30,183 nt of DNA from a virus. Its lineage: Duplodnaviria > Caudoviricetes. The notes beneath the pieces are model-generated. The model did not search any database. It was given only the letters and a program-made list of their open reading frames with translations, and had not been told where the DNA came from. The translations under genes and the position numbers were made by a program. The DNA is taken from positions 1 to 30,183 of the IMG/VR virus record IMGVR_UViG_3300032330_000609; one strand, written 5' to 3'. This document shows, piece after piece, positions 5,222 to 30,012 of this stretch (positions are counted from its first letter, which is position 1; every line of letters begins with the position of its first letter).

Positions 5222-8200
5222 TAGTTTAGACCCCTTTGGGCTAGTAGCGCATTTCCGTTACTGACGGTTGATGCCAACTGTGCAGTATCCGCATATAGAT
5301 TAATTGGTCGATCAATTGCTGCGCGTAGTAATTGTCGATCCTCTGGCGATAGATAAGTTATTTGAGTTCCACCCTGAGATGTATTTACTGTAGATCCCAT
5401 AGACGCACGACTAAAGTTCATCTGATTTAGTGAGTTCATAAAGTCAACACCATAAGTTTTTACAGCAGATGCATTCATTACATATTCACCATTTGAAAGC
5501 ATTGCAGAAATTGCATCGCTTCTAGATCCACCCGGACCAGCAACATAGCCACCATTAGCATAAGCAAGTTTTACATCGAATGGCTTGTATTTTGTGCCGT
5601 TCTGTAGTTCCCAGTTGCCAATGTATTTCATTGCATTATCAAGAATCATGGCATGTGGAATCTTGGTCATCAATTGCTCAAACCAATTCTTTTTATTCCA
5701 AATATCCATTTCAGCCTTCAGGTCGTTATAGACCTTTAGGTAAGTAGCCAAGCCCGGTGGGGTTGCTACAACTGGAGTTACAGGTGCTGCTGGAACACGA
5801 GGCAAACTACCGCTTCCAGTTCCGCTACCCGAACCAGTGCCAGTGCCAGTGCTACCACCGCTAGTAGTTGGAATGCTATTTAGCACGCCATCATCTGTGC
5901 GAACAACCTTGACATTTAGTTTGTGTTCTTTTGCTAGATATTCCTGCACAGCATTGAACTCTGCACTCTTTGTAGCATCAAATTCAACGGTTACATCGCG
6001 AGGTGTATCATGAACGGTCTTAGCATATGCATCAAATTGAGCAGCATATTTTTCAAGTTCAGTTGCGTTATACCCAACTTCTTTACCCTGAGCAATAAAC
6101 TCTGTCTTTAGTCCAGAAACCGCATTCTCAAGTTCAGTTCCCTTCATGCCAGTAGCGGCTAGTGTCTTGATATATTCCTGATACTTACCAAGCATATCTA
6201 TAATATTGCTGCGGTTCGCTGCTGCAGCAGATCCATTGCCAACAAGCGATGTATTTGCTTTATCCTGCGCATCTGATAGAGAGTTATTAGCCTTAGCAAG
6301 ATCTGCAGTATTCTTTGCTAGTTTTGCACGAATGGCCTCAGCGCGCTTTGTATCGCCATAGCGCACAGCCACACCGAGCTGGAATTCTAAGATGCTTTTA
6401 TCTGCAGTAAGTTCTTTGATGCTCTGATTAGCATTATCAATTGCTTCTTGAGCAGCCTTAGCGTCATCCTTAATCTTTCTCCAGCCACCAGCAATTCCAT
6501 CAAGTGCAGTTTGCTTTGAGAACTGAATATCATCAATACGCTTAAAAACAGAAATTAGATCATTTGCATAGTCAACTACAGTTCTAACTGTTTGACTTAG
6601 TTTTCCGGTATCTTTAGTTAGTTTAGTAAGGTCAATTCCGGTGGTTTTTGCTGCATTTCCGAGATCTACTAAACCGTAACCCATAAGGTAGGCTTCACCA
6701 ACCGCACCGGCAAGCGTATCTTTCAACTGCTCTAGCGGGAAATTAAAACCATTCCAGAAGTCTGATTTTAGAATTGTTGGAGTCTTTAGTCCAAGTCTGT
6801 TTCCTTTTGATTCAAGGGTATTGAAATAGGCATCAAGGGCGGCTTGACCCTTTTTAGCGGCAGCACTTGCATCAGTAAAGTTATAGCCAACCTTACGCAA
6901 GTAGTCAACGGTCTTAGTGTCTTTAGCAATATTTGCAAAATCACCAGACTGAAGCATTCTCTGCTGAAGCCATAGGTCATAGTTTTGACCCAAAACAATG
7001 TTCTGCTGCTGCAAAGCACCAGTTGTAGTATTTAGACCATTTGGTAGATCGGTTCCAGCGATTACCGCAAAACCCTGTGCAGTTTTAGATGCATCATAAA
7101 CAGCAGCATCATTTTGCTGCATTGAGGTTGTCATGCCAGCAATCTGACCTGATGCAATTGCGGCATTCACGCCAGCCTCTGAACCAAAGTCCTTTAGTGC
7201 TTGCTGATAGTCAGCAGTTAGTGCTTCCTGAAGTCCAGAGAATCCATTGAGTAGGTTCTCAGCCTTTTGCGTTACTGGGGCAAGGGCCTCGCCAACCATT
7301 GAGATTGCCTGCACAACAGCGCCCAATACTGCTAGCCATCCAGTTGCTTTTAGAGCGGTGTTGAAGAACTTAGCAGCAACAACACCCTTATTCAAAGCGC
7401 CGGTAGTTGCATTTACTGCACCTTCAACGCCGATCATTGCAATTGCATAGGCTTTTATAGCAGCCTGACCAAGAGCAACAACCGCATTGATGGAAGTAAA
7501 TGCCGCGACAACACCAAGTAGTCCAATAGTTAGTGGCATTACCCAGTCACGAATGAATGGGCTACGCGCTGCATTATTTAGAGTCTGCAGGAATGATGTA
7601 ATTGCATCTAGCAAGCCCTTGAACATGTCGCCAGTTGCGCCTTCACCAAGGCTAGCCAATAGGTTATCCCAGTTATTTTTTAGAACCTCTAGTTTTGCTG
7701 CAACAGTATCCTGAATTTGACCATATGCAGCAGAAAGGAATGTGCCTTCGGTATATGCCTTACTAGCATTTCTAATTGAATCTGCGTAAACATTGTAGTT
7801 ATCGCCAAGTTTTTGAATAGTCTGAATATCGCGCACATTGTGCAGACCGATGCCACGAAGCACAGAGTCAAGATTCTGACCATTATCTGACATAGACTGC
7901 AAACCGCCTAAGAATGCATCAAAAGCCTTTTGACCATTTGTTTGCCATGTCTTAGCGAAATCTTCTGCACTCATTCCAGCAATATTTGCATAGTTTTTAA
8001 GAGCAGAACCACCAGCGCCAACCGCCTGATTAATTCCAGCAAATGTGCGGATGATCGATCCACGAGCCGCTTCAGGTGCAATACCAACAGATGATAGTGC
8101 AGTTGCTAGACCGACAACCTCTGGCGTTGAAAATTTAGCCATCTTTGCAGTAGTTGCAATTTCCTTAGTTACAGATGCAATCTGTTCTTCAGTTGCAACT

Positions 8201-17108: not shown

Positions 17109-17109
<1 letters not shown>
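16912..17109 (-). CDS. Stand-alone Mtd_N-like mini protein
   Basis: IQLRGGTAAQWASANPVLAERELVVETDTKKIKIGDG; ends IDGGTA. Confidence 0.75.
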
Positions 17110-18884
<1,775 letters not shown>

Positions 18885-18902
18885 TCAACAATTCTATCAT
18901 TA

Positions 18903-18972
18903 CAAATAAAGAACGCCCCGGAGCGAAGGCTCAACGAGGCGTTCTATAGGGCAACGAAGGAGAAAGCGTTGC
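18903..18972 (-). ncRNA. Putative ~70-nt small RNA with an anti-Shine-Dalgarno loop and its own terminator
   Basis: Upstream TGcTAAAAT (hexamer 18984-18979); hairpin GCAACG-CUUUCUCCUU-CGUUGC; second hairpin AGAACGCCUCG..GAGC-CUUC-GCUC-CGGGGCGUUCU followed by UUAUUUGU. Confidence 0.6.
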
Positions 18973-18987
18973 ATGTCAATTTTAGCA

Positions 18988-19020
18988 CAAAAGAAAAACC
19001 CCCGCCTTTCAGCGGGGGCT
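18988..19020 (-). terminator. Intrinsic terminator after the major capsid gene
   Basis: AGCCCCCGCU-GAAA-GGCGGGGGUU followed by UUUCUUUU. Confidence 0.92.
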
Positions 19021-19037
19021 AATCTTAGGGAGTGCTA

Positions 19038-20147
19038 TTAAGCGCCTGCACCGGTTGAAGCAAAAGTTCCAGCAGGAACTAGGAAGCCACCAGTTGCAAG
19101 GTGACGAATTCGCATCTGGAAGTCGTCGTTGTCGAATGAGCCAGCACGAACTGGAACATCGCCGCCACCTAGAAGCATGCCACCCTCACTCTTTACGCGA
19201 AGTTCAGGAGTCTCGTGTCCACGAAGGAATGAGAGAACAACTGATGGGTTTAGCGAGGTTGCAGGAGCAGGAATCAAGAACCAGTAAGCACCTGCGTTAG
19301 CGTTGATGCGGGTCAACCAGTGGTTAACAACTACATCTACACGACCAGCAACAGGGTTGCCATGGATCTGTAGGTCATTACCAACGGTAGTGCGTAGTTC
19401 AGTTACAGAAAGGATGTTGCGAGCAGTCATCTCAAGTGCAGGTGAGACTACAAGAGTCCAACGCTGAACAGGAGTGATTGGGCGACCATTGTAGGTCTGC
19501 TGGTTAACAGCATTCATAGCCTTCTGTAGTGAGTCAATGCTTAGAGCAGGGTTCACACCAGCACCGTTACCCGAAGAACCAATGTTCTGGTTTCCTGAGT
19601 TAAAGTTAGTGGTGTTTAGACCTGAAGCAGAAACCAACTGCTTGGTTGCTTCGCGGTCCTCAAGACCTGCAGCGTGCATAGCAAGTTCCATAGGCAAACG
19701 CTCAATGACACCGAAGTTGTTGTCGTTGATGATTGACTCCCATGAGAAGCGGATGCGCTCACCAGACTTCTTGATGCTGATTTCCTGCTCAGTTGCTGAG
19801 AATGAAAGAGTAGGATACTCGTCATACTCACCAACATTTGGAAGTGAGCCATCGATGAATGCGTTTCCACCGTTCTCAGCAGGAATGTTGTCCTGATCGA
19901 ACTTGAACTGGAAATACTTTTGTGGACGGAAGTCGTCCAAAACGGTCTTGGTAGCGAATGCATCCCACACCTTTGGAAGTGCAGCATAGTTCTCTAGCAA
20001 GATGCGGTTTAGGTAAGGCTGGATCTGAACTGGGAAGTCCGAGGTCGAGATGCCTTCCTTAACCTTCAACTGGTCCATACGGTCGCCACGAAGTGCGCCG
20101 TCTAGAATCTTCGCAGCCTCAAGCTGACGAGCAGTGATATTAGACAT
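19038..20147 (-). CDS. Major capsid protein (HK97 fold, Mu gpT-like family)
   Basis: 369 aa; EGISTSDFP, V.EY.EYP, FSWESIINDN, FLRGHETPE and GSFDNDD motifs; follows the scaffold and cement genes; codon bias suggests high expression. Confidence 0.9.
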   Translation of the reverse strand: MSNITARQLEAAKILDGALRGDRMDQLKVKEGISTSDFPVQIQPYLNRILLENYAALPKVWDAFATKTVLDDFRPQKYFQFKFDQDNIPAENGGNAFIDGSLPNVGEYDEYPTLSFSATEQEISIKKSGERIRFSWESIINDNNFGVIERLPMELAMHAAGLEDREATKQLVSASGLNTTNFNSGNQNIGSSGNGAGVNPALSIDSLQKAMNAVNQQTYNGRPITPVQRWTLVVSPALEMTARNILSVTELRTTVGNDLQIHGNPVAGRVDVVVNHWLTRINANAGAYWFLIPAPATSLNPSVVLSFLRGHETPELRVKSEGGMLLGGGDVPVRAGSFDNDDFQMRIRHLATGGFLVPAGTFASTGAGA

Positions 20148-25865: not shown

Positions 25866-25870
25866 ATCAG

Positions 25871-25941
25871 CACCGCCACTAGGAATTGAACCCAGTCCAA
25901 CGGGTTTGGAATCCGTTGTGCTTCCGTAACACTTTGGCGAT
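25871..25941 (-). tRNA. tRNA-Trp (CCA); 3' CCA not encoded
   Basis: Acceptor AUCGCCA/UGGCGGU, D arm GUGU/GCAC, anticodon loop UU-CCA-AA, T arm CUGGG-UUCAAUU-CCUAG, discriminator G. Confidence 0.88.
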
Positions 25942-26203: not shown

Positions 26204-27139
26204 TTAGCGGGTCTTGCGAACTTGGAGCAACTGCCACGCTTGCGCGAAGGTCTGCGCCTGTTCGAGCCAAAGGGTCGTTGCATTGGTCTTGGCGAACTCG
26301 ACAATTTGCATTAGCAAAATCGCCCAAGCGCGAATTTCGGCGGTCGAGTTTGTTCCGGCGTGCTGTCTAAATTCGATGGTCTGCGCGGTGCGGTATCCAC
26401 GCGCTCCGGCAAAGTGTGGCGCGGTGTTTACGGCGTAATACTTCTCTGTGCTTTCGGCTTCGAATTGTAGGCGGTGCGCTTGGCTGTCGCTGTTCTTCTG
26501 CGCGTAGTAAGTTCCGGCGCGCTCGGCGATAGGGTCGAGAATGTGCGACATCGAGCGGTAAACGCGGATAACATTTGCAAGGTCGCGAGCGGTTAGGTCT
26601 GCGCTTCCTAGGTGAATGTGAAGCCCGCAAGTGTCGTTTATTTCGACATCCGCCAAGCCCGCTAGGTCTAGCGCTCCAAGGTGTTGCGGGTGCGTGCCTT
26701 CGCAATAGGTTGCCGGCTTTATCTCTTGGTAATCGCCCGCGCCGTTGCACTCACTATTCCCGCAGTCGTGTTCTGGGTCATCGTTGTAATCTCCGCAGTT
26801 GTCGCAGTTGCACTCATGATAGGTGCAACTTCTGCACTCGCACTCGCACTCATCGCTCCCGTTCTCGCGACTAACCGAGCCGTCTCCGCAGAAGGCGAGA
26901 ATGTCGCGCGGGTCGTTGTGTTCTCCCATGATCTCGATAAGTTCCGGTGTCTGCTGGCGGTAGTTTGCGCCTAGGTTCATGTGAATAGTGTCTGCGTCTG
27001 GTGTCTCAATTTCGAAAGCCCAAGTGCGAGCGGTTGCGGTCGGCTCGGCAGTTGCCAAGTCTTGCGCGAATTTGTCGAACTCGGCACGAATAAAGGCGCT
27101 CTGCTCGCGGGTGCTAGTGAATTTTGGTGCTTTTTGCAT
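26204..27139 (-). CDS. Putative amidoligase (COOH-NH2 ligase, glutamine synthetase fold, Amidoligase_2-like) with a Cys-rich insert
   Basis: WAFEIET, DGSV, QEIK, INDTCGLHIHLG, KYYAVN and TIEFRQHAGT motifs in family order. Confidence 0.88.
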   Translation of the reverse strand: MQKAPKFTSTREQSAFIRAEFDKFAQDLATAEPTATARTWAFEIETPDADTIHMNLGANYRQQTPELIEIMGEHNDPRDILAFCGDGSVSRENGSDECECECRSCTYHECNCDNCGDYNDDPEHDCGNSECNGAGDYQEIKPATYCEGTHPQHLGALDLAGLADVEINDTCGLHIHLGSADLTARDLANVIRVYRSMSHILDPIAERAGTYYAQKNSDSQAHRLQFEAESTEKYYAVNTAPHFAGARGYRTAQTIEFRQHAGTNSTAEIRAWAILLMQIVEFAKTNATTLWLEQAQTFAQAWQLLQVRKTR

Positions 27140-27163
27140 GGTCGTTTTCTTTCTTTTGTCGGG

Positions 27164-27319
27164 TTATTTGGTGCGGTGAATGTAGCGGATAAGGAGCGCG
27201 CAGATTCCAAGCGGAATAAGTGCGCCGAGCGGTGCGAGTAGCGCGCCGATGATTTCGGCAAGCGCGCAAAGTGCGAGCAAGCCGAAGGCGATTAGTAGTG
27301 CGGTTGCGGTCGTTTTCAT
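27164..27319 (-). CDS. 51-aa two-TM membrane protein, leaderless; not in the ORF track
   Basis: MKTTATALLIAFGLLALCALAEIIGALLAPLGALIPLGICALLIRYIHRTK*; ATG 6 nt after TAGAAT; stops 24 nt before the amidoligase start. Confidence 0.78.
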   Translation of the reverse strand: MKTTATALLIAFGLLALCALAEIIGALLAPLGALIPLGICALLIRYIHRTK

Positions 27320-27325
27320 GGTTCG

Positions 27326-27355
27326 ATTCTAGCCGATTTTGCACCTTCTATGCAA
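27326..27355 (-). promoter_or_regulatory. SigA-type promoter for the membrane protein-amidoligase operon
   Basis: TTGCAT-N18-TAGAAT-N6-ATG with an A-rich upstream tract. Confidence 0.75.
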
Positions 27356-27410
27356 GCCAATTCGAGCAATTTTGCAAACTTTTTTTATTTTATTTTCTGG
27401 CGTGTCGCTA

Positions 27411-27440
27411 TTGACTAAACCCGCTCCGGCATGGTATAAG
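27411..27440 (+). promoter_or_regulatory. Possible rightward promoter into the non-coding region
   Basis: TTGACT-N18-TATAAG with a TG extension, preceded by GGCGTGTCG. Confidence 0.5.
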
Positions 27441-27471
27441 CGCGAGCTGCAACCGGTCGAGCCGGTGCAAG

Positions 27472-27490
27472 TTAGGTAAGCCTTACTTGA
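27472..27490. promoter_or_regulatory. IdeR/DtxR-like iron box
   Basis: TTAGGTAAGCCTTACTTGA matches TWAGGTWAGSCTWACCTWA at 17 of 19 positions. Confidence 0.7.
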
Positions 27491-27543
27491 CTACCTTCAA
27501 CCCTAGGTCGAGGGTTTCGCGCTCGCGGGGTCGGTTCAGCCGG

Positions 27544-27598
27544 CTCTCAGGAAACTCTCAGGAAACTATCAGGCAGCTTGCAGGATCTTCTCAGGGTC
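27544..27598 (+). repeat. Five tandem 11-bp units with a CAGG core; MprA/OmpR-family-like boxes
   Basis: CTCTCAGGAAA CTCTCAGGAAA CTATCAGGCAG CTTGCAGGATC TTCTCAGGGTC. Confidence 0.75.
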
Positions 27599-27634
27599 AA
27601 AAATGCCTATTTCCCGCGCGTGTGCGTGCGCCAG

Positions 27635-27811
27635 CGCGAATTCCCAAATGTTGCCCGCACCGGCGCGAATTCCCAAAATACGCAGGTGTGCCTAGCGCCC
27701 GCGAATTCCTAAATGGCAGGGATGTATTGCGTTGTGCCTAATGCGCGAATTCCCAAACACGATCTTTATCCATACCGCGAGCGCGGTGCATACACAGCGC
27801 GAATTCCTAAA
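27635..27811 (+). repeat. Five 14-bp direct repeats CGCGAATTCCYAAA with unique spacers
   Basis: Starts at 27635, 27664, 27700, 27744 and 27798; spacers of 15, 22, 30 and 40 bp. Confidence 0.92.
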
Positions 27812-27837
27812 TAAAGGAGCGCGCGTATCCGCGAGCG

Positions 27838-27867
27838 CGTATAGCACAAACTAGGATGGTCTGTCAA
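27838..27867 (-). promoter_or_regulatory. Possible leftward promoter into the repeat array
   Basis: TTGACA-N18-TATACG with a TG extension; the -10 lacks the final T. Confidence 0.45.
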
Positions 27868-28018
27868 GTGTTTTTCGAATAAATCTTTTTTGCAAATGAA
27901 CTTGCGTATGTCGCAATAGTATGCAATCATGTTCTTACGGCGATGAAGCCGGCGCGTGAGTATCCTGTAAATATCTCTCCGCGCATGTTGGTCGGTATCC
28001 CCCATACTCGACTAACTC

Positions 28019-28058
28019 GGGTGCTTACTCTTTGCTTGGTCGTTTCGAGTAAGCACCC
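28019..28058. other. Perfect 12-bp inverted repeat (hairpin)
   Basis: GGGTGCTTACTC (28019-28030) / GAGTAAGCACCC (28047-28058). Confidence 0.7.
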
Positions 28059-28083
28059 CCCAAAAATTTTTCATCGAATCAAC

Positions 28084-28112
28084 TTGACATAACATTTTTA
28101 TTCGATTAGACT
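28084..28112 (+). promoter_or_regulatory. SigA-type promoter for the amidotransferase
   Basis: TTGACA-N17-TAGACT, followed by an AAGGAG RBS. Confidence 0.8.
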
Positions 28113-28154
28113 ATGTAATACAATCAAACAATTCAATAAAGGAGAAACGATAAT

Positions 28155-29231
28155 ATGTGTTCAATTGGTGGCTTTTCATTATCAACAAACAGCCGTATCA
28201 ACCCGCGCAAGTTGGCTAACGCACTACTAACCGAAATGGATGTGCGCGGTAATCAGGCTTCGGGCTATGCATGGCAGTCAAGCACAGGTTCAGGTGTCTA
28301 CAAAAAAGACACTTCGGGCGCTCGTCTCTCCATGAAGCAGATGTCAAAAGGCACACGCCTAGCCGTTCTACACACTCGTTATGCAACGCATGGCACAATT
28401 CGCGACATGGCTAACAATCACCCTGTTCTATCACCGGACAAGTCTGTTGCACTCGTTCACAACGGCGTTATCTACAACCACGATCGAGTTCGTAGCGAGA
28501 TGTCTATCGGCTCGATTCTGCCAGAAGTAGATACCGCAGTTATCCCTGCACTCTTGCAGGAGTTCGACCGCGACACCGACAAGTTCGACATGCTAGACGG
28601 AGACGCTTCGGTTGCATGGCTAGACGACAACGACCGACTAGTTATGAAACTCGCTCGTATCTCGCACTCGCCATTGTGTATCGCACAACTTGCAGACGGC
28701 TCATTCGTATTCGCTTCGACCGAGAGCATTCTTTGGAATGCACTCAAAGTTGCAGGTCTCGCACCGGTCTACATGGAGAATGTGCCAGAGCGCGTTCTCA
28801 TGACGATTCGAGACGGCGTTCTTGCCGATGTCGAAGCATTACCAGAACTCGACAAGAAGTATGAGAACGACTGGACTTCTTACTACTCGAAGTCAAGTTA
28901 TCGCGGTATGACTGCCGGTGGCAAAGGCGTAAGCATTTACACCAGCGAGCCTAACGCGAGTATCTTTGGCGATGTAGAAGATACCGAGATGATCGAGTTC
29001 CCAGAAGTAGACGGCATGATTCCAAACGAGTTTGGCGAATACTTTGACGAAGCGGGTATCTACATGGGTAGCGTTGACGACTTGATTGAGACCGGCTATC
29101 TCTACTATGACGAAGTGTATGGCAAGTATGAGAAAACCGGTAAGTTCAACGAGCAAATCGACTTCTGCTACGCGCAAAAGCCGAAGGTAAAATTTAGCGA
29201 CATGTGGGGAGATGTTAGTGAACTTTTCTAA
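28155..29231 (+). CDS. Class II (Ntn) glutamine amidotransferase with an acidic C-terminal extension
   Basis: Cys at position 2 (MCSIGG); RGNQASG, HTRYATHG, NNHP, HNGVIYN and VDT motifs. Confidence 0.92.
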   Translation: MCSIGGFSLSTNSRINPRKLANALLTEMDVRGNQASGYAWQSSTGSGVYKKDTSGARLSMKQMSKGTRLAVLHTRYATHGTIRDMANNHPVLSPDKSVALVHNGVIYNHDRVRSEMSIGSILPEVDTAVIPALLQEFDRDTDKFDMLDGDASVAWLDDNDRLVMKLARISHSPLCIAQLADGSFVFASTESILWNALKVAGLAPVYMENVPERVLMTIRDGVLADVEALPELDKKYENDWTSYYSKSSYRGMTAGGKGVSIYTSEPNASIFGDVEDTEMIEFPEVDGMIPNEFGEYFDEAGIYMGSVDDLIETGYLYYDEVYGKYEKTGKFNEQIDFCYAQKPKVKFSDMWGDVSELF

Positions 29232-29533: not shown

Positions 29534-29549
29534 AAAAGGAGAAAACGCC

Positions 29550-29720
29550 ATGAGTAAGTCAGCAAGATCACTATTCAAAATCAAGACCACGCTCGCGATG
29601 TTGTCAATGCAGTCAAGCGTTGATTACTATCTGCTAGCAGACGATAGCGCGATTCGCGATTACTACGAGAATGGCGCAGACTTCGATACCATTTTGAACT
29701 ATGTCAATGAGAACTACTAA
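29550..29720 (+). CDS. Hypothetical protein (56 aa; probable start ATG 29550)
   Basis: AAGGAG RBS 8 nt before the ATG; the upstream extension in the ORF track only translates the repeat motifs. Confidence 0.75.
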   Translation: MSKSARSLFKIKTTLAMLSMQSSVDYYLLADDSAIRDYYENGADFDTILNYVNENY

Positions 29721-29733
29721 GGAGAACAGCAAC

Positions 29734-30012
29734 ATGCCACCACTAGAAGCCGATGTAATCGCAAACAAAATTAGCAACGACATTGCAAGCGCAGAAGCGC
29801 GCATTGCAGACTACGCCGGAAACCTAAGCCGTTGGTTCGGCAAAGACCGCGAGTTGACCGACATCGTAAACCCAAACATGCCGTTCGAATCGCAGTATGT
29901 AAAAGCCATGCTCGACAAGATGAATGGCGAGTATCGCAACCTGCTACAACTACAAGCACAACTCACCGAGTTCCAGATGAACTCAACTGAAAAGGAGACT
30001 GCAAATGTCTAA
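29734..30012 (+). CDS. Hypothetical helical protein (92 aa; probable start ATG 29734)
   Basis: AAGGAG RBS overlapping the previous stop codon. Confidence 0.75.
   Translation: MPPLEADVIANKISNDIASAEARIADYAGNLSRWFGKDRELTDIVNPNMPFESQYVKAMLDKMNGEYRNLLQLQAQLTEFQMNSTEKETANV

Follow-up and report, generated by a model that had tools for sequence, protein, structure and literature searches.

The window, the whole 30,183-nucleotide stretch of DNA analyzed here, is a 30-kb phage contig in which the terminase, portal, capsid, tail, and lysis genes all lie on the minus strand and a plus-strand gene block starts at 28155. Between the genes for the major capsid protein and a collagen-repeat fibre lies a short unit of two hairpins (P1 and P2), the first of which displays an anti-Shine-Dalgarno (anti-SD) loop (Table 1).

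Table 1. Features of the post-capsid unit, its flanking genes, and the predicted target ribosome-binding sites (RBSs)
Feature	Position	Strand	Remarks
Major capsid protein gene	19038..20147	-	Upstream of unit; RBS AAGGAA, without AGGAG
Capsid-operon intrinsic terminator, 5' boundary of unit	18990..19020	-	Relatives have an equivalent terminator
Extended -10 promoter-like site TGCTAAAAT, no -35	18979..18987	-	[TA]GnTAnnnT upstream in 43/47 distinct units vs 5.6% of random windows
Hairpin P1, 6-bp covarying stem, begins at predicted +1	18951..18972	-	Both-side changes in 5/6 and 6/6 pairs (two alignments)
10-nt anti-SD loop, CUCCU core, U-type, complementary to AAGGAGA	18957..18966	-	Core in 47/47 distinct units
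Linker between P1 and P2	18946..18950	-	0-26 nt in relatives; TGTG (UGUG in RNA) in 30/47
Hairpin P2, terminator stem, invariant G-C / U-led bulge / G-C, A-U motif	18910..18945	-	Lower stem covaries
U tract, predicted 3' end	18903..18909	-	At least 5 T within 8 nt past stem in 41/47 units
Promoter-like site TGATAGAAT of leaderless collagen-fibre gene	18891..18899	-	TAnAAT and start codon within 14 nt in 42/47 vs 2.4% of random windows
Collagen-repeat fibre gene	17109..18884	-	Downstream of unit; leaderless
Predicted target RBS, glutamine amidotransferase gene (28155-29231)	28139..28148	+	-10.9 kcal/mol with loop
Predicted target RBS, 56-codon ORF at 29550	29536..29547	+	-11.2 kcal/mol with loop
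Predicted target RBS, 92-codon ORF at 29734	29719..29727	+	-9.9 kcal/mol with loop
Predicted target RBS, ORF at 30005 (runs off contig)	29992..29999	+	-9.1 kcal/mol with loop

The P1 stem pairs bases 18972-18967 with 18956-18951, and its first base, G18972, is the seventh past TGCTAAAAT; P2 has a UU bulge at 18934-18933 and a single G-U pair (18937/18918); TGATAGAAT lies 7 nt ahead of the collagen ATG (18884). The initial annotation had named the terminator, TGCTAAAAT, G18972, the hairpins, the U tract, and the new promoter, and had every position right. The unit folds at -29.2 kcal/mol (z -4.9 to -6.0; none of 200 shuffles is as good) and its plus strand at -28.4, so the strand is settled by the relatives and the promoters and not by the window's fold. 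The G-U pair of P2 had been taken as a mark of the strand; the pair is there, but the plus strand folds nearly as well, and it is the frequency of G-U pairs in the relatives that fixes the orientation.

The window has eight sites for AAGGAGA, the word complementary to the loop, where 3.4 would be expected, a count matched in 3 of 100 shuffles. Four of the eight sites lead plus-strand ATG ORFs (28155, 29550, 29734, and 30005; predicted pairing -9.1 to -11.2 kcal/mol), just as had been read earlier, including the complementarity of 11 of 12 bases at 29536. One late gene (13399) had been named as an exception; it does pair, at -9.1 kcal/mol, but pairing energies of -8.1 to -8.5 are obtained for three more (15378, 24546, and 12335). 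No AGGAG is seen for the amidoligase gene of the minus strand (27139), which is perhaps early. With this number of sites and with strands that fold alike, the window taken alone is modest evidence.

The window capsid protein is 37-44% identical to those of the closest cultured relatives, whose hosts are mostly Arthrobacter, Clavibacter, and Curtobacterium, and WhiB is encoded in relatives of the phage. A Rhodoluna-binned contig carries the capsid gene, the unit, and the fibre gene, so the host is probably a Rhodoluna-like member of the Microbacteriaceae, binning being no proof; a capsid search across GTDB genomes gave no confirmed match. The closest cultured capsid relative, Jojan60 (L076, ON045087.1), is deposited as a Stenotrophomonas phage; its promoter style and its unit are common to actinobacterial phages, and the host label may need checking.

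Elsewhere in the window, an amidoligase gene (26204-27139, minus strand) and the glutamine amidotransferase gene (plus strand) form a divergent pair. The ORF-poor divergence region at 27150-28150 contains several repeats of GCGCGAATTCC(C/T)AAA and -35/-10 promoter-like sites, and is likely an origin, a genome end, or an operator array. A tRNA-Trp(CCA) lies at 25870-25941 (minus strand), and a second tRNA-like stretch may sit just upstream.

Conservation of the unit and its bulged terminator

Of the 524 capsid relatives in IMG/VR, the best 80 were fetched, and a covariance model was built on the window and 19 of them. The unit was found in 67 of the 80 capsid loci at E < 1e-7 (19 of the 67 being among the model-building sequences); in the other 13, which are fragments or lie at a contig end, the sequence stops 1-3295 bases past the capsid gene. 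The unit is present, as one strong copy each, in 13 of the 14 records with a completeness of 90% or more, and the sole miss (G029, with 50% capsid identity) has a divergent version recognized by eye. The unit lies right after the capsid terminator or past inserted genes (RNR, NrdH-like, other small RNAs), at most 3.6 kb off.

Covariation across relatives, proposed earlier as a check, was found in both stems: 14 of 20 pairs change on both sides in a MAFFT alignment and 17 of 20 in a model-fitted alignment (0 of 500 shuffles), the latter having 96.6% of cells paired over 55 distinct rows. RNAalifold, applied to the raw 45-sequence MAFFT alignment, recovered P2 and missed P1 because P1 stems vary in length; rows L087, L088, and L125 of the scripted alignment are mis-parsed at P2. 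In P1 the CUCCU loop is kept while the stem sequence turns over, and the loop conservation on which the initial annotation depended extends to every distinct unit. The search word for the loop core was CTCC[T/C]; circularity in this count appears to be limited by the near-universal presence of the unit in unselected capsid loci.

At gathering and E-value thresholds, Rfam 15 yields a tRNA only in the whole window; the top hit within 18850-19050, located on the capsid terminator, reaches 24.8 bits where the cut-off is 50, and 20 related loci give no match, so that the unit matches no known Rfam family. A promoter-like site, a terminator, and a new downstream promoter are common in the relatives, with a new -10 downstream in all 47 distinct units, which agrees with the earlier proposal of a stand-alone unit. 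This is a real, conserved, structured RNA family, whose stand-alone unit is predicted to give an RNA of about 70 nt.

A relative about 90% identical and carrying the unit is present in two sequencing runs (as contigs, probably DNA). Among cultured phages, Clavibacter phage CN1A has a homologue (E 7e-7), and Microbacterium phage WaterT has, near record position 6120-6190, a weakly scoring one, recognized by eye, that shares the bulge motif; anti-SD units of different shape occupy the same post-capsid site in Jojan60, Arthrobacter phage Amigo, Jacko, Satis, and CMP1. The exact window hairpin has 0 matches in IMG/VR, and a promoter-anchored pattern among 65 loci and a pattern scan of 12 of 64 metagenome parts returned mostly chance matches. 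Save for one weak WaterT site, the scanned records hold no second long-stemmed P2.

The same slot houses other small elements and looks like a cassette for small RNAs. An RNA of about 80 nt with a tRNA-like acceptor and T arm and no anticodon arm is found in three relatives (L085:4089-4170, L087:5186-5267, and L125:5201-5280); ARAGORN reported nothing there and Rfam tRNA scored 23 bits, below cut-off. We take it to resemble the tRNA-like domain of tmRNA without the coding part. A hairpin unit of about 42 nt, with its own promoter-like site, a near-identical large loop, and covarying stems, occurs in two relatives (L082:5178-5218 and L125:5160-5200), and a similar insertion is present in the contig data of the relative that is about 90% identical. 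Tiny K/R/H-rich ORFs (about 28-37 codons) just past the capsid terminator (L108, L112, L117, and L135) could possibly encode DNA- or RNA-binding peptides.

P2 contains a motif that the initial annotation of this hairpin had missed: three pairs are unvarying among 52-53 sequences, and the bulge is U-led in 47 of 47 units. The arginine sandwich motif of 7SK/TAR has a layout with a U:A-U triple cap; P2 resembles it in its bulged U, with a G-C pair before and G-C and A-U pairs after, a likeness in secondary structure only and to be taken as a lead (PMC6189040). A scan with the P2 terminator only returned 36 loci (30 distinct), 16 of them with CTCCT at most 75 nt upstream, compared with 42 of 816 windows taken as background. 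The carriers are mostly unrelated phages, in which the terminator lies in the terminase-portal gap or beside other terminase types. The co-occurrence of U-bulged P2 hairpins with anti-SD words in unrelated phages points to P2 plus an anti-SD seed as a recurring module.

Carriers with the terminator in the terminase-portal gap are L271, L276, L285, L291, L318, and L337, and further unrelated carriers are L259, L261, L272, L302, and L330; these U-bulged terminators are preceded by one, two, or three anti-SD words, and a promoter-like site is often present too. In the cultured podoviruses Rollin and RHph_TM27A the terminase is followed by the next gene without a gap. One genome of the probable host family has a prophage-like locus (L405:1501-1567), between HNH and small terminase genes, that carries a promoter, P1, and bulged P2 with a different loop. 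A search of 151 genomes of that family gave no host homologue of the unit: the single full match lies on a phage contig, and the other hits are this prophage-like locus and two plain terminators; of 29 matches in a GTDB pattern search, only the Rhodoluna contig scores.

Ribosome-binding sites and the loop

RBS usage was compared in 24 records (23 fetched plus the window), in which ORFs were called without regard to RBS. AGGAG leads 29 of 444 late-module homologues, 41 of 388 other same-strand ORFs, and 230 of 716 opposite-strand ORFs, the method background being 62 of 4497 (1.4%). No capsid, decoration, or protease gene (0/24 each) and no major tail gene (0/20) is AGGAG-led; their RBSs are AAGGAA, AAGGAU, AAGGUA, or AGAAAGG, and the adaptor and fibre genes are mostly leaderless. 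These virion words remain able to pair with the 3' end of the 16S tail, as read from four genomes of the probable host genus. The base after AGGA is G at 23 of 136 late sites versus 208 of 296 opposite-strand sites, and in five held-out records AGGAG leads 4 of 82 late and 53 of 163 opposite-strand ORFs.

In 22 of 22 records, pairing with the loop is weaker for late RBSs than for those of the opposite strand. Late RBSs pair more weakly with 16S too (median -7.2 vs -9.0); in bins matched for 16S pairing, loop pairing is again weaker for late RBSs in three of four, and the difference vanishes in the weakest bin. As a control, AGGAG leads 19 of 75 annotated late starts in five phages in which no unit was detected, and 5 of 51 in eight carriers (p 0.04), a small comparison with several cases read by eye; Yappy (1/11) and Pan2 (0/5), left out of the 19/75 count, have no unit detected and still avoid AGGAG. 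Nonagon, a cultured exception, has a unit-like RNA yet an AGGAGG capsid RBS. Together the counts support the view that virion RBSs systematically avoid the AGGAG word. The initial annotation had late genes spared because most are leaderless or use other RBSs; avoidance is indeed seen, but the sparing would owe less to leaderless starts than to RBSs that do not extend to the fifth G (AGGA-A/U, AAGG-U/C).

The base 5' of the loop core is U or C, and the loop switches between UCUCCU and CCUCCU several times among the relatives. The ratio of AGGAGA to AGGAGG among opposite-strand sites is 54:9 for the six U-loop records and 93:90 for the 16 with a C-loop, in a tally that omits G008 and G029. The families most consistently led by AGGAG are SSB (18/23), Sak4 (13/17), exonuclease (13/17), and primase (9/17). 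Among SSB, Sak4, and exonuclease orthologues, 42 of 54 rows are AGGAG-led, and the next base in these is A in 10 and G in 0 U-loop rows, and G in 24, A in 7, and T in 1 C-loop rows. G217, the closest relative with an early region and a U-loop record, has AGGAGA at 14 of 15 sites. Held-out AGGAGA:AGGAGG counts are 10:0 in G217 (U) and 5:6, 2:10, and 2:6 in G218, G220, and G221 (C). Two records with C-type loops, G015 (9:0) and the held-out G219 (7:0), are exceptions in having no AGGAGG site.

On a quick capsid tree, the loop label must have changed five times or more. The two informative sister contrasts (G002 vs G003/G004; G005/G013 vs G001/G027) both go in the predicted direction; since only two are independent and informative, p-values overstate the case, and a host effect on both loop and RBSs may lie behind their association. 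The match first noticed between the loop and the phage's own non-virion RBSs extends, G015 and G219 excepted, to co-variation across relatives. C-type loops closely copy the 16S tail; the U-loop departs from the tail of the four probable-host-genus genomes yet fits the phage RBSs, which favors mRNA pairing over tail mimicry.

A putative translational switch and its alternatives

We consider it fairly probable that the unit encodes a two-hairpin RNA that pairs in trans with the AGGAG RBSs of the phage's own non-virion genes, the effect being a lower translation of these genes once infection is past its midpoint. The predicted RNA of about 70 nt would be made from a late-type promoter; its loop would cover AGGAG sites on replication-gene mRNAs and block 30S loading, the main predicted targets being the replication and recombination genes for SSB, Sak4, exonuclease, and primase. 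Virion mRNAs would escape because their shifted SD (AAGGA-A/U, AGAAAGG) uses a neighboring register of the host 16S tail or because they have no leader. P2 would end transcription, and its invariant U-bulge would likely bind a protein. From the sequence record we infer expression, timing, repression, and protein binding alike; the seed is short (6-9 bp). A late translational switch over early genes had been proposed from the window; a seed that co-varies with non-virion RBSs while virion RBSs avoid it speaks for the pairing on which such a switch would depend. Late timing is less clear, as the promoter type of the unit is also that of RNR and NrdH-like genes of relatives.

That shared promoter type would also suit an RNA that pairs with the same early mRNAs but tunes or stabilizes them (middle-phase dosage, decay protection); co-variation tells of pairing and not of its sign, and the lambda sRNA PreS is described as both activating and repressing (10.1101/2024.10.31.621285). 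Such tuning is nevertheless unlikely: the pairing covers the SD itself, loop-to-RBS sRNAs characterized in published accounts repress (PMC6486639, PMC10746234), and avoidance by late genes fits escape from a repressor. That avoidance, together with the close copying of the 16S tail by C-type loops, could also be expected of a generic anti-SD blocker that mainly shuts off the host and frees ribosomes for virion mRNAs, phage early genes being collateral. We regard this as improbable, since a loop set by host mRNAs would not be expected to track phage RBSs and AGGAG leads 42 of 349 (~12%) ORFs sampled from two probable-host-genus genomes, a figure that also lends little support to the silencing of host mRNAs suggested in the initial annotation.

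Toxins that cleave the anti-SD exist, and the loop might mimic the 16S 3' tail as a decoy that titrates such a host factor, with the bulged hairpin as a handle. The invariance of the P2 bulge motif, its fit to the arginine sandwich description (PMC6189040), and its recurrence in unrelated phages and in the prophage-like locus with a different loop would all be accommodated. A decoy should stay on the host tail, however, and U-type loops leave it to follow the phage RBSs; avoidance by late genes would be left unexplained, and no conserved arginine-rich small phage protein was found among the 62 most widespread families (ORFs of at least 55 aa), so that we think a decoy role improbable as well. 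Action in cis, as a leader or insulator of the downstream fibre gene or as the RBS of an antisense ORF (22 codons from 18973), seems very unlikely. The unit does stay directly upstream of the fibre gene even where genes are inserted after the capsid gene, and the window plus strand has AAGGAG ahead of an ATG, but in 47 of 47 units a separate promoter serves the downstream gene, which is mostly leaderless and differs in several relatives. The antisense ORF was rejected, its start not being conserved: in 31 of 46 relatives the antisense AGGAG is not followed by a start codon.

Accounts of temporal control in lytic phages usually place it at the level of transcription. A broader reading of the proposed switch, which we advance tentatively and at somewhat short of even odds, is that this lytic lineage has a two-class RBS code (AGGAG(A/G) for replication genes; shifted SD or no leader for virion genes), that one small RNA switches translation from early to late, and that the U-bulged terminator is a portable protein-binding module which unrelated phages attach to anti-SD seeds. 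If true, a single anti-SD RNA telling two RBS classes apart would amount to a genome-wide translational switch; the co-variation of loop and RBS would be a rare compensatory signal in trans that names targets beforehand. The homologues in the cultured phages WaterT and CN1A make the unit testable, and it may offer a chaperone-light design for class-selective translation control in Actinobacteria.

Comparison with known regulatory RNAs

In Staphylococcus, RsaE and RNAIII, which are host regulators of Firmicutes, block SD sequences with unpaired C/U seeds; the unit likewise presents an unpaired C/U seed but differs in the seed itself, in not being a host regulator, and in having no Rfam match. 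The phage base-pairing sRNAs PreS (lambda) and VpdS are reported to aid the lytic cycle; PreS, unlike the unit, is Hfq-bound, acts mostly on host genes, and has a specific seed, and that account presents neither as an anti-SD switch for phage mRNAs as a class (10.1101/2024.10.31.621285). A literature search found no description of this phage RNA, and a catalogue of phage structured RNAs has no match in seven supplements, its unsearchable files 1 and 2 being places that may hold an unnamed model (PMC10690425).

Closer parallels come from bacterial sRNAs. The cuckoo or alpha-r14 sRNAs of Alphaproteobacteria (RSs0680, NfeR1) are described as chromosomal or plasmid-borne, with two to four hairpins each carrying CCUCCUCCC; as in the unit, an anti-SD motif is fixed in a hairpin loop and the stems are variable, and they act in trans on RBSs, as is predicted for the unit (PMC4615179, PMC10746234). 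The unit differs in having one seed loop, a shorter core, and a bulged terminator, in being phage-borne, and in a seed that tracks phage RBSs; no listed loop of the 47 units reads CCUCCUCCC. The 6C (B11) sRNA of Actinobacteria, which is reported to repress by loop-to-RBS pairing independently of a chaperone, shares the actinobacterial setting and the loop-displayed pyrimidine seed; as described, it is a host chromosomal gene with two C-run loops for G-rich sites, and the unit has a single C/U loop (PMC6486639). At the level of sequence, the unit has the promoter and terminator of its own that mark trans-acting anti-SD sRNAs, and its seed co-varies with the target RBSs except in G015 and G219. 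It lacks the defining features of the cuckoo/NfeR1 and 6C sRNAs and has no Rfam family, but its predicted way of working is like theirs.
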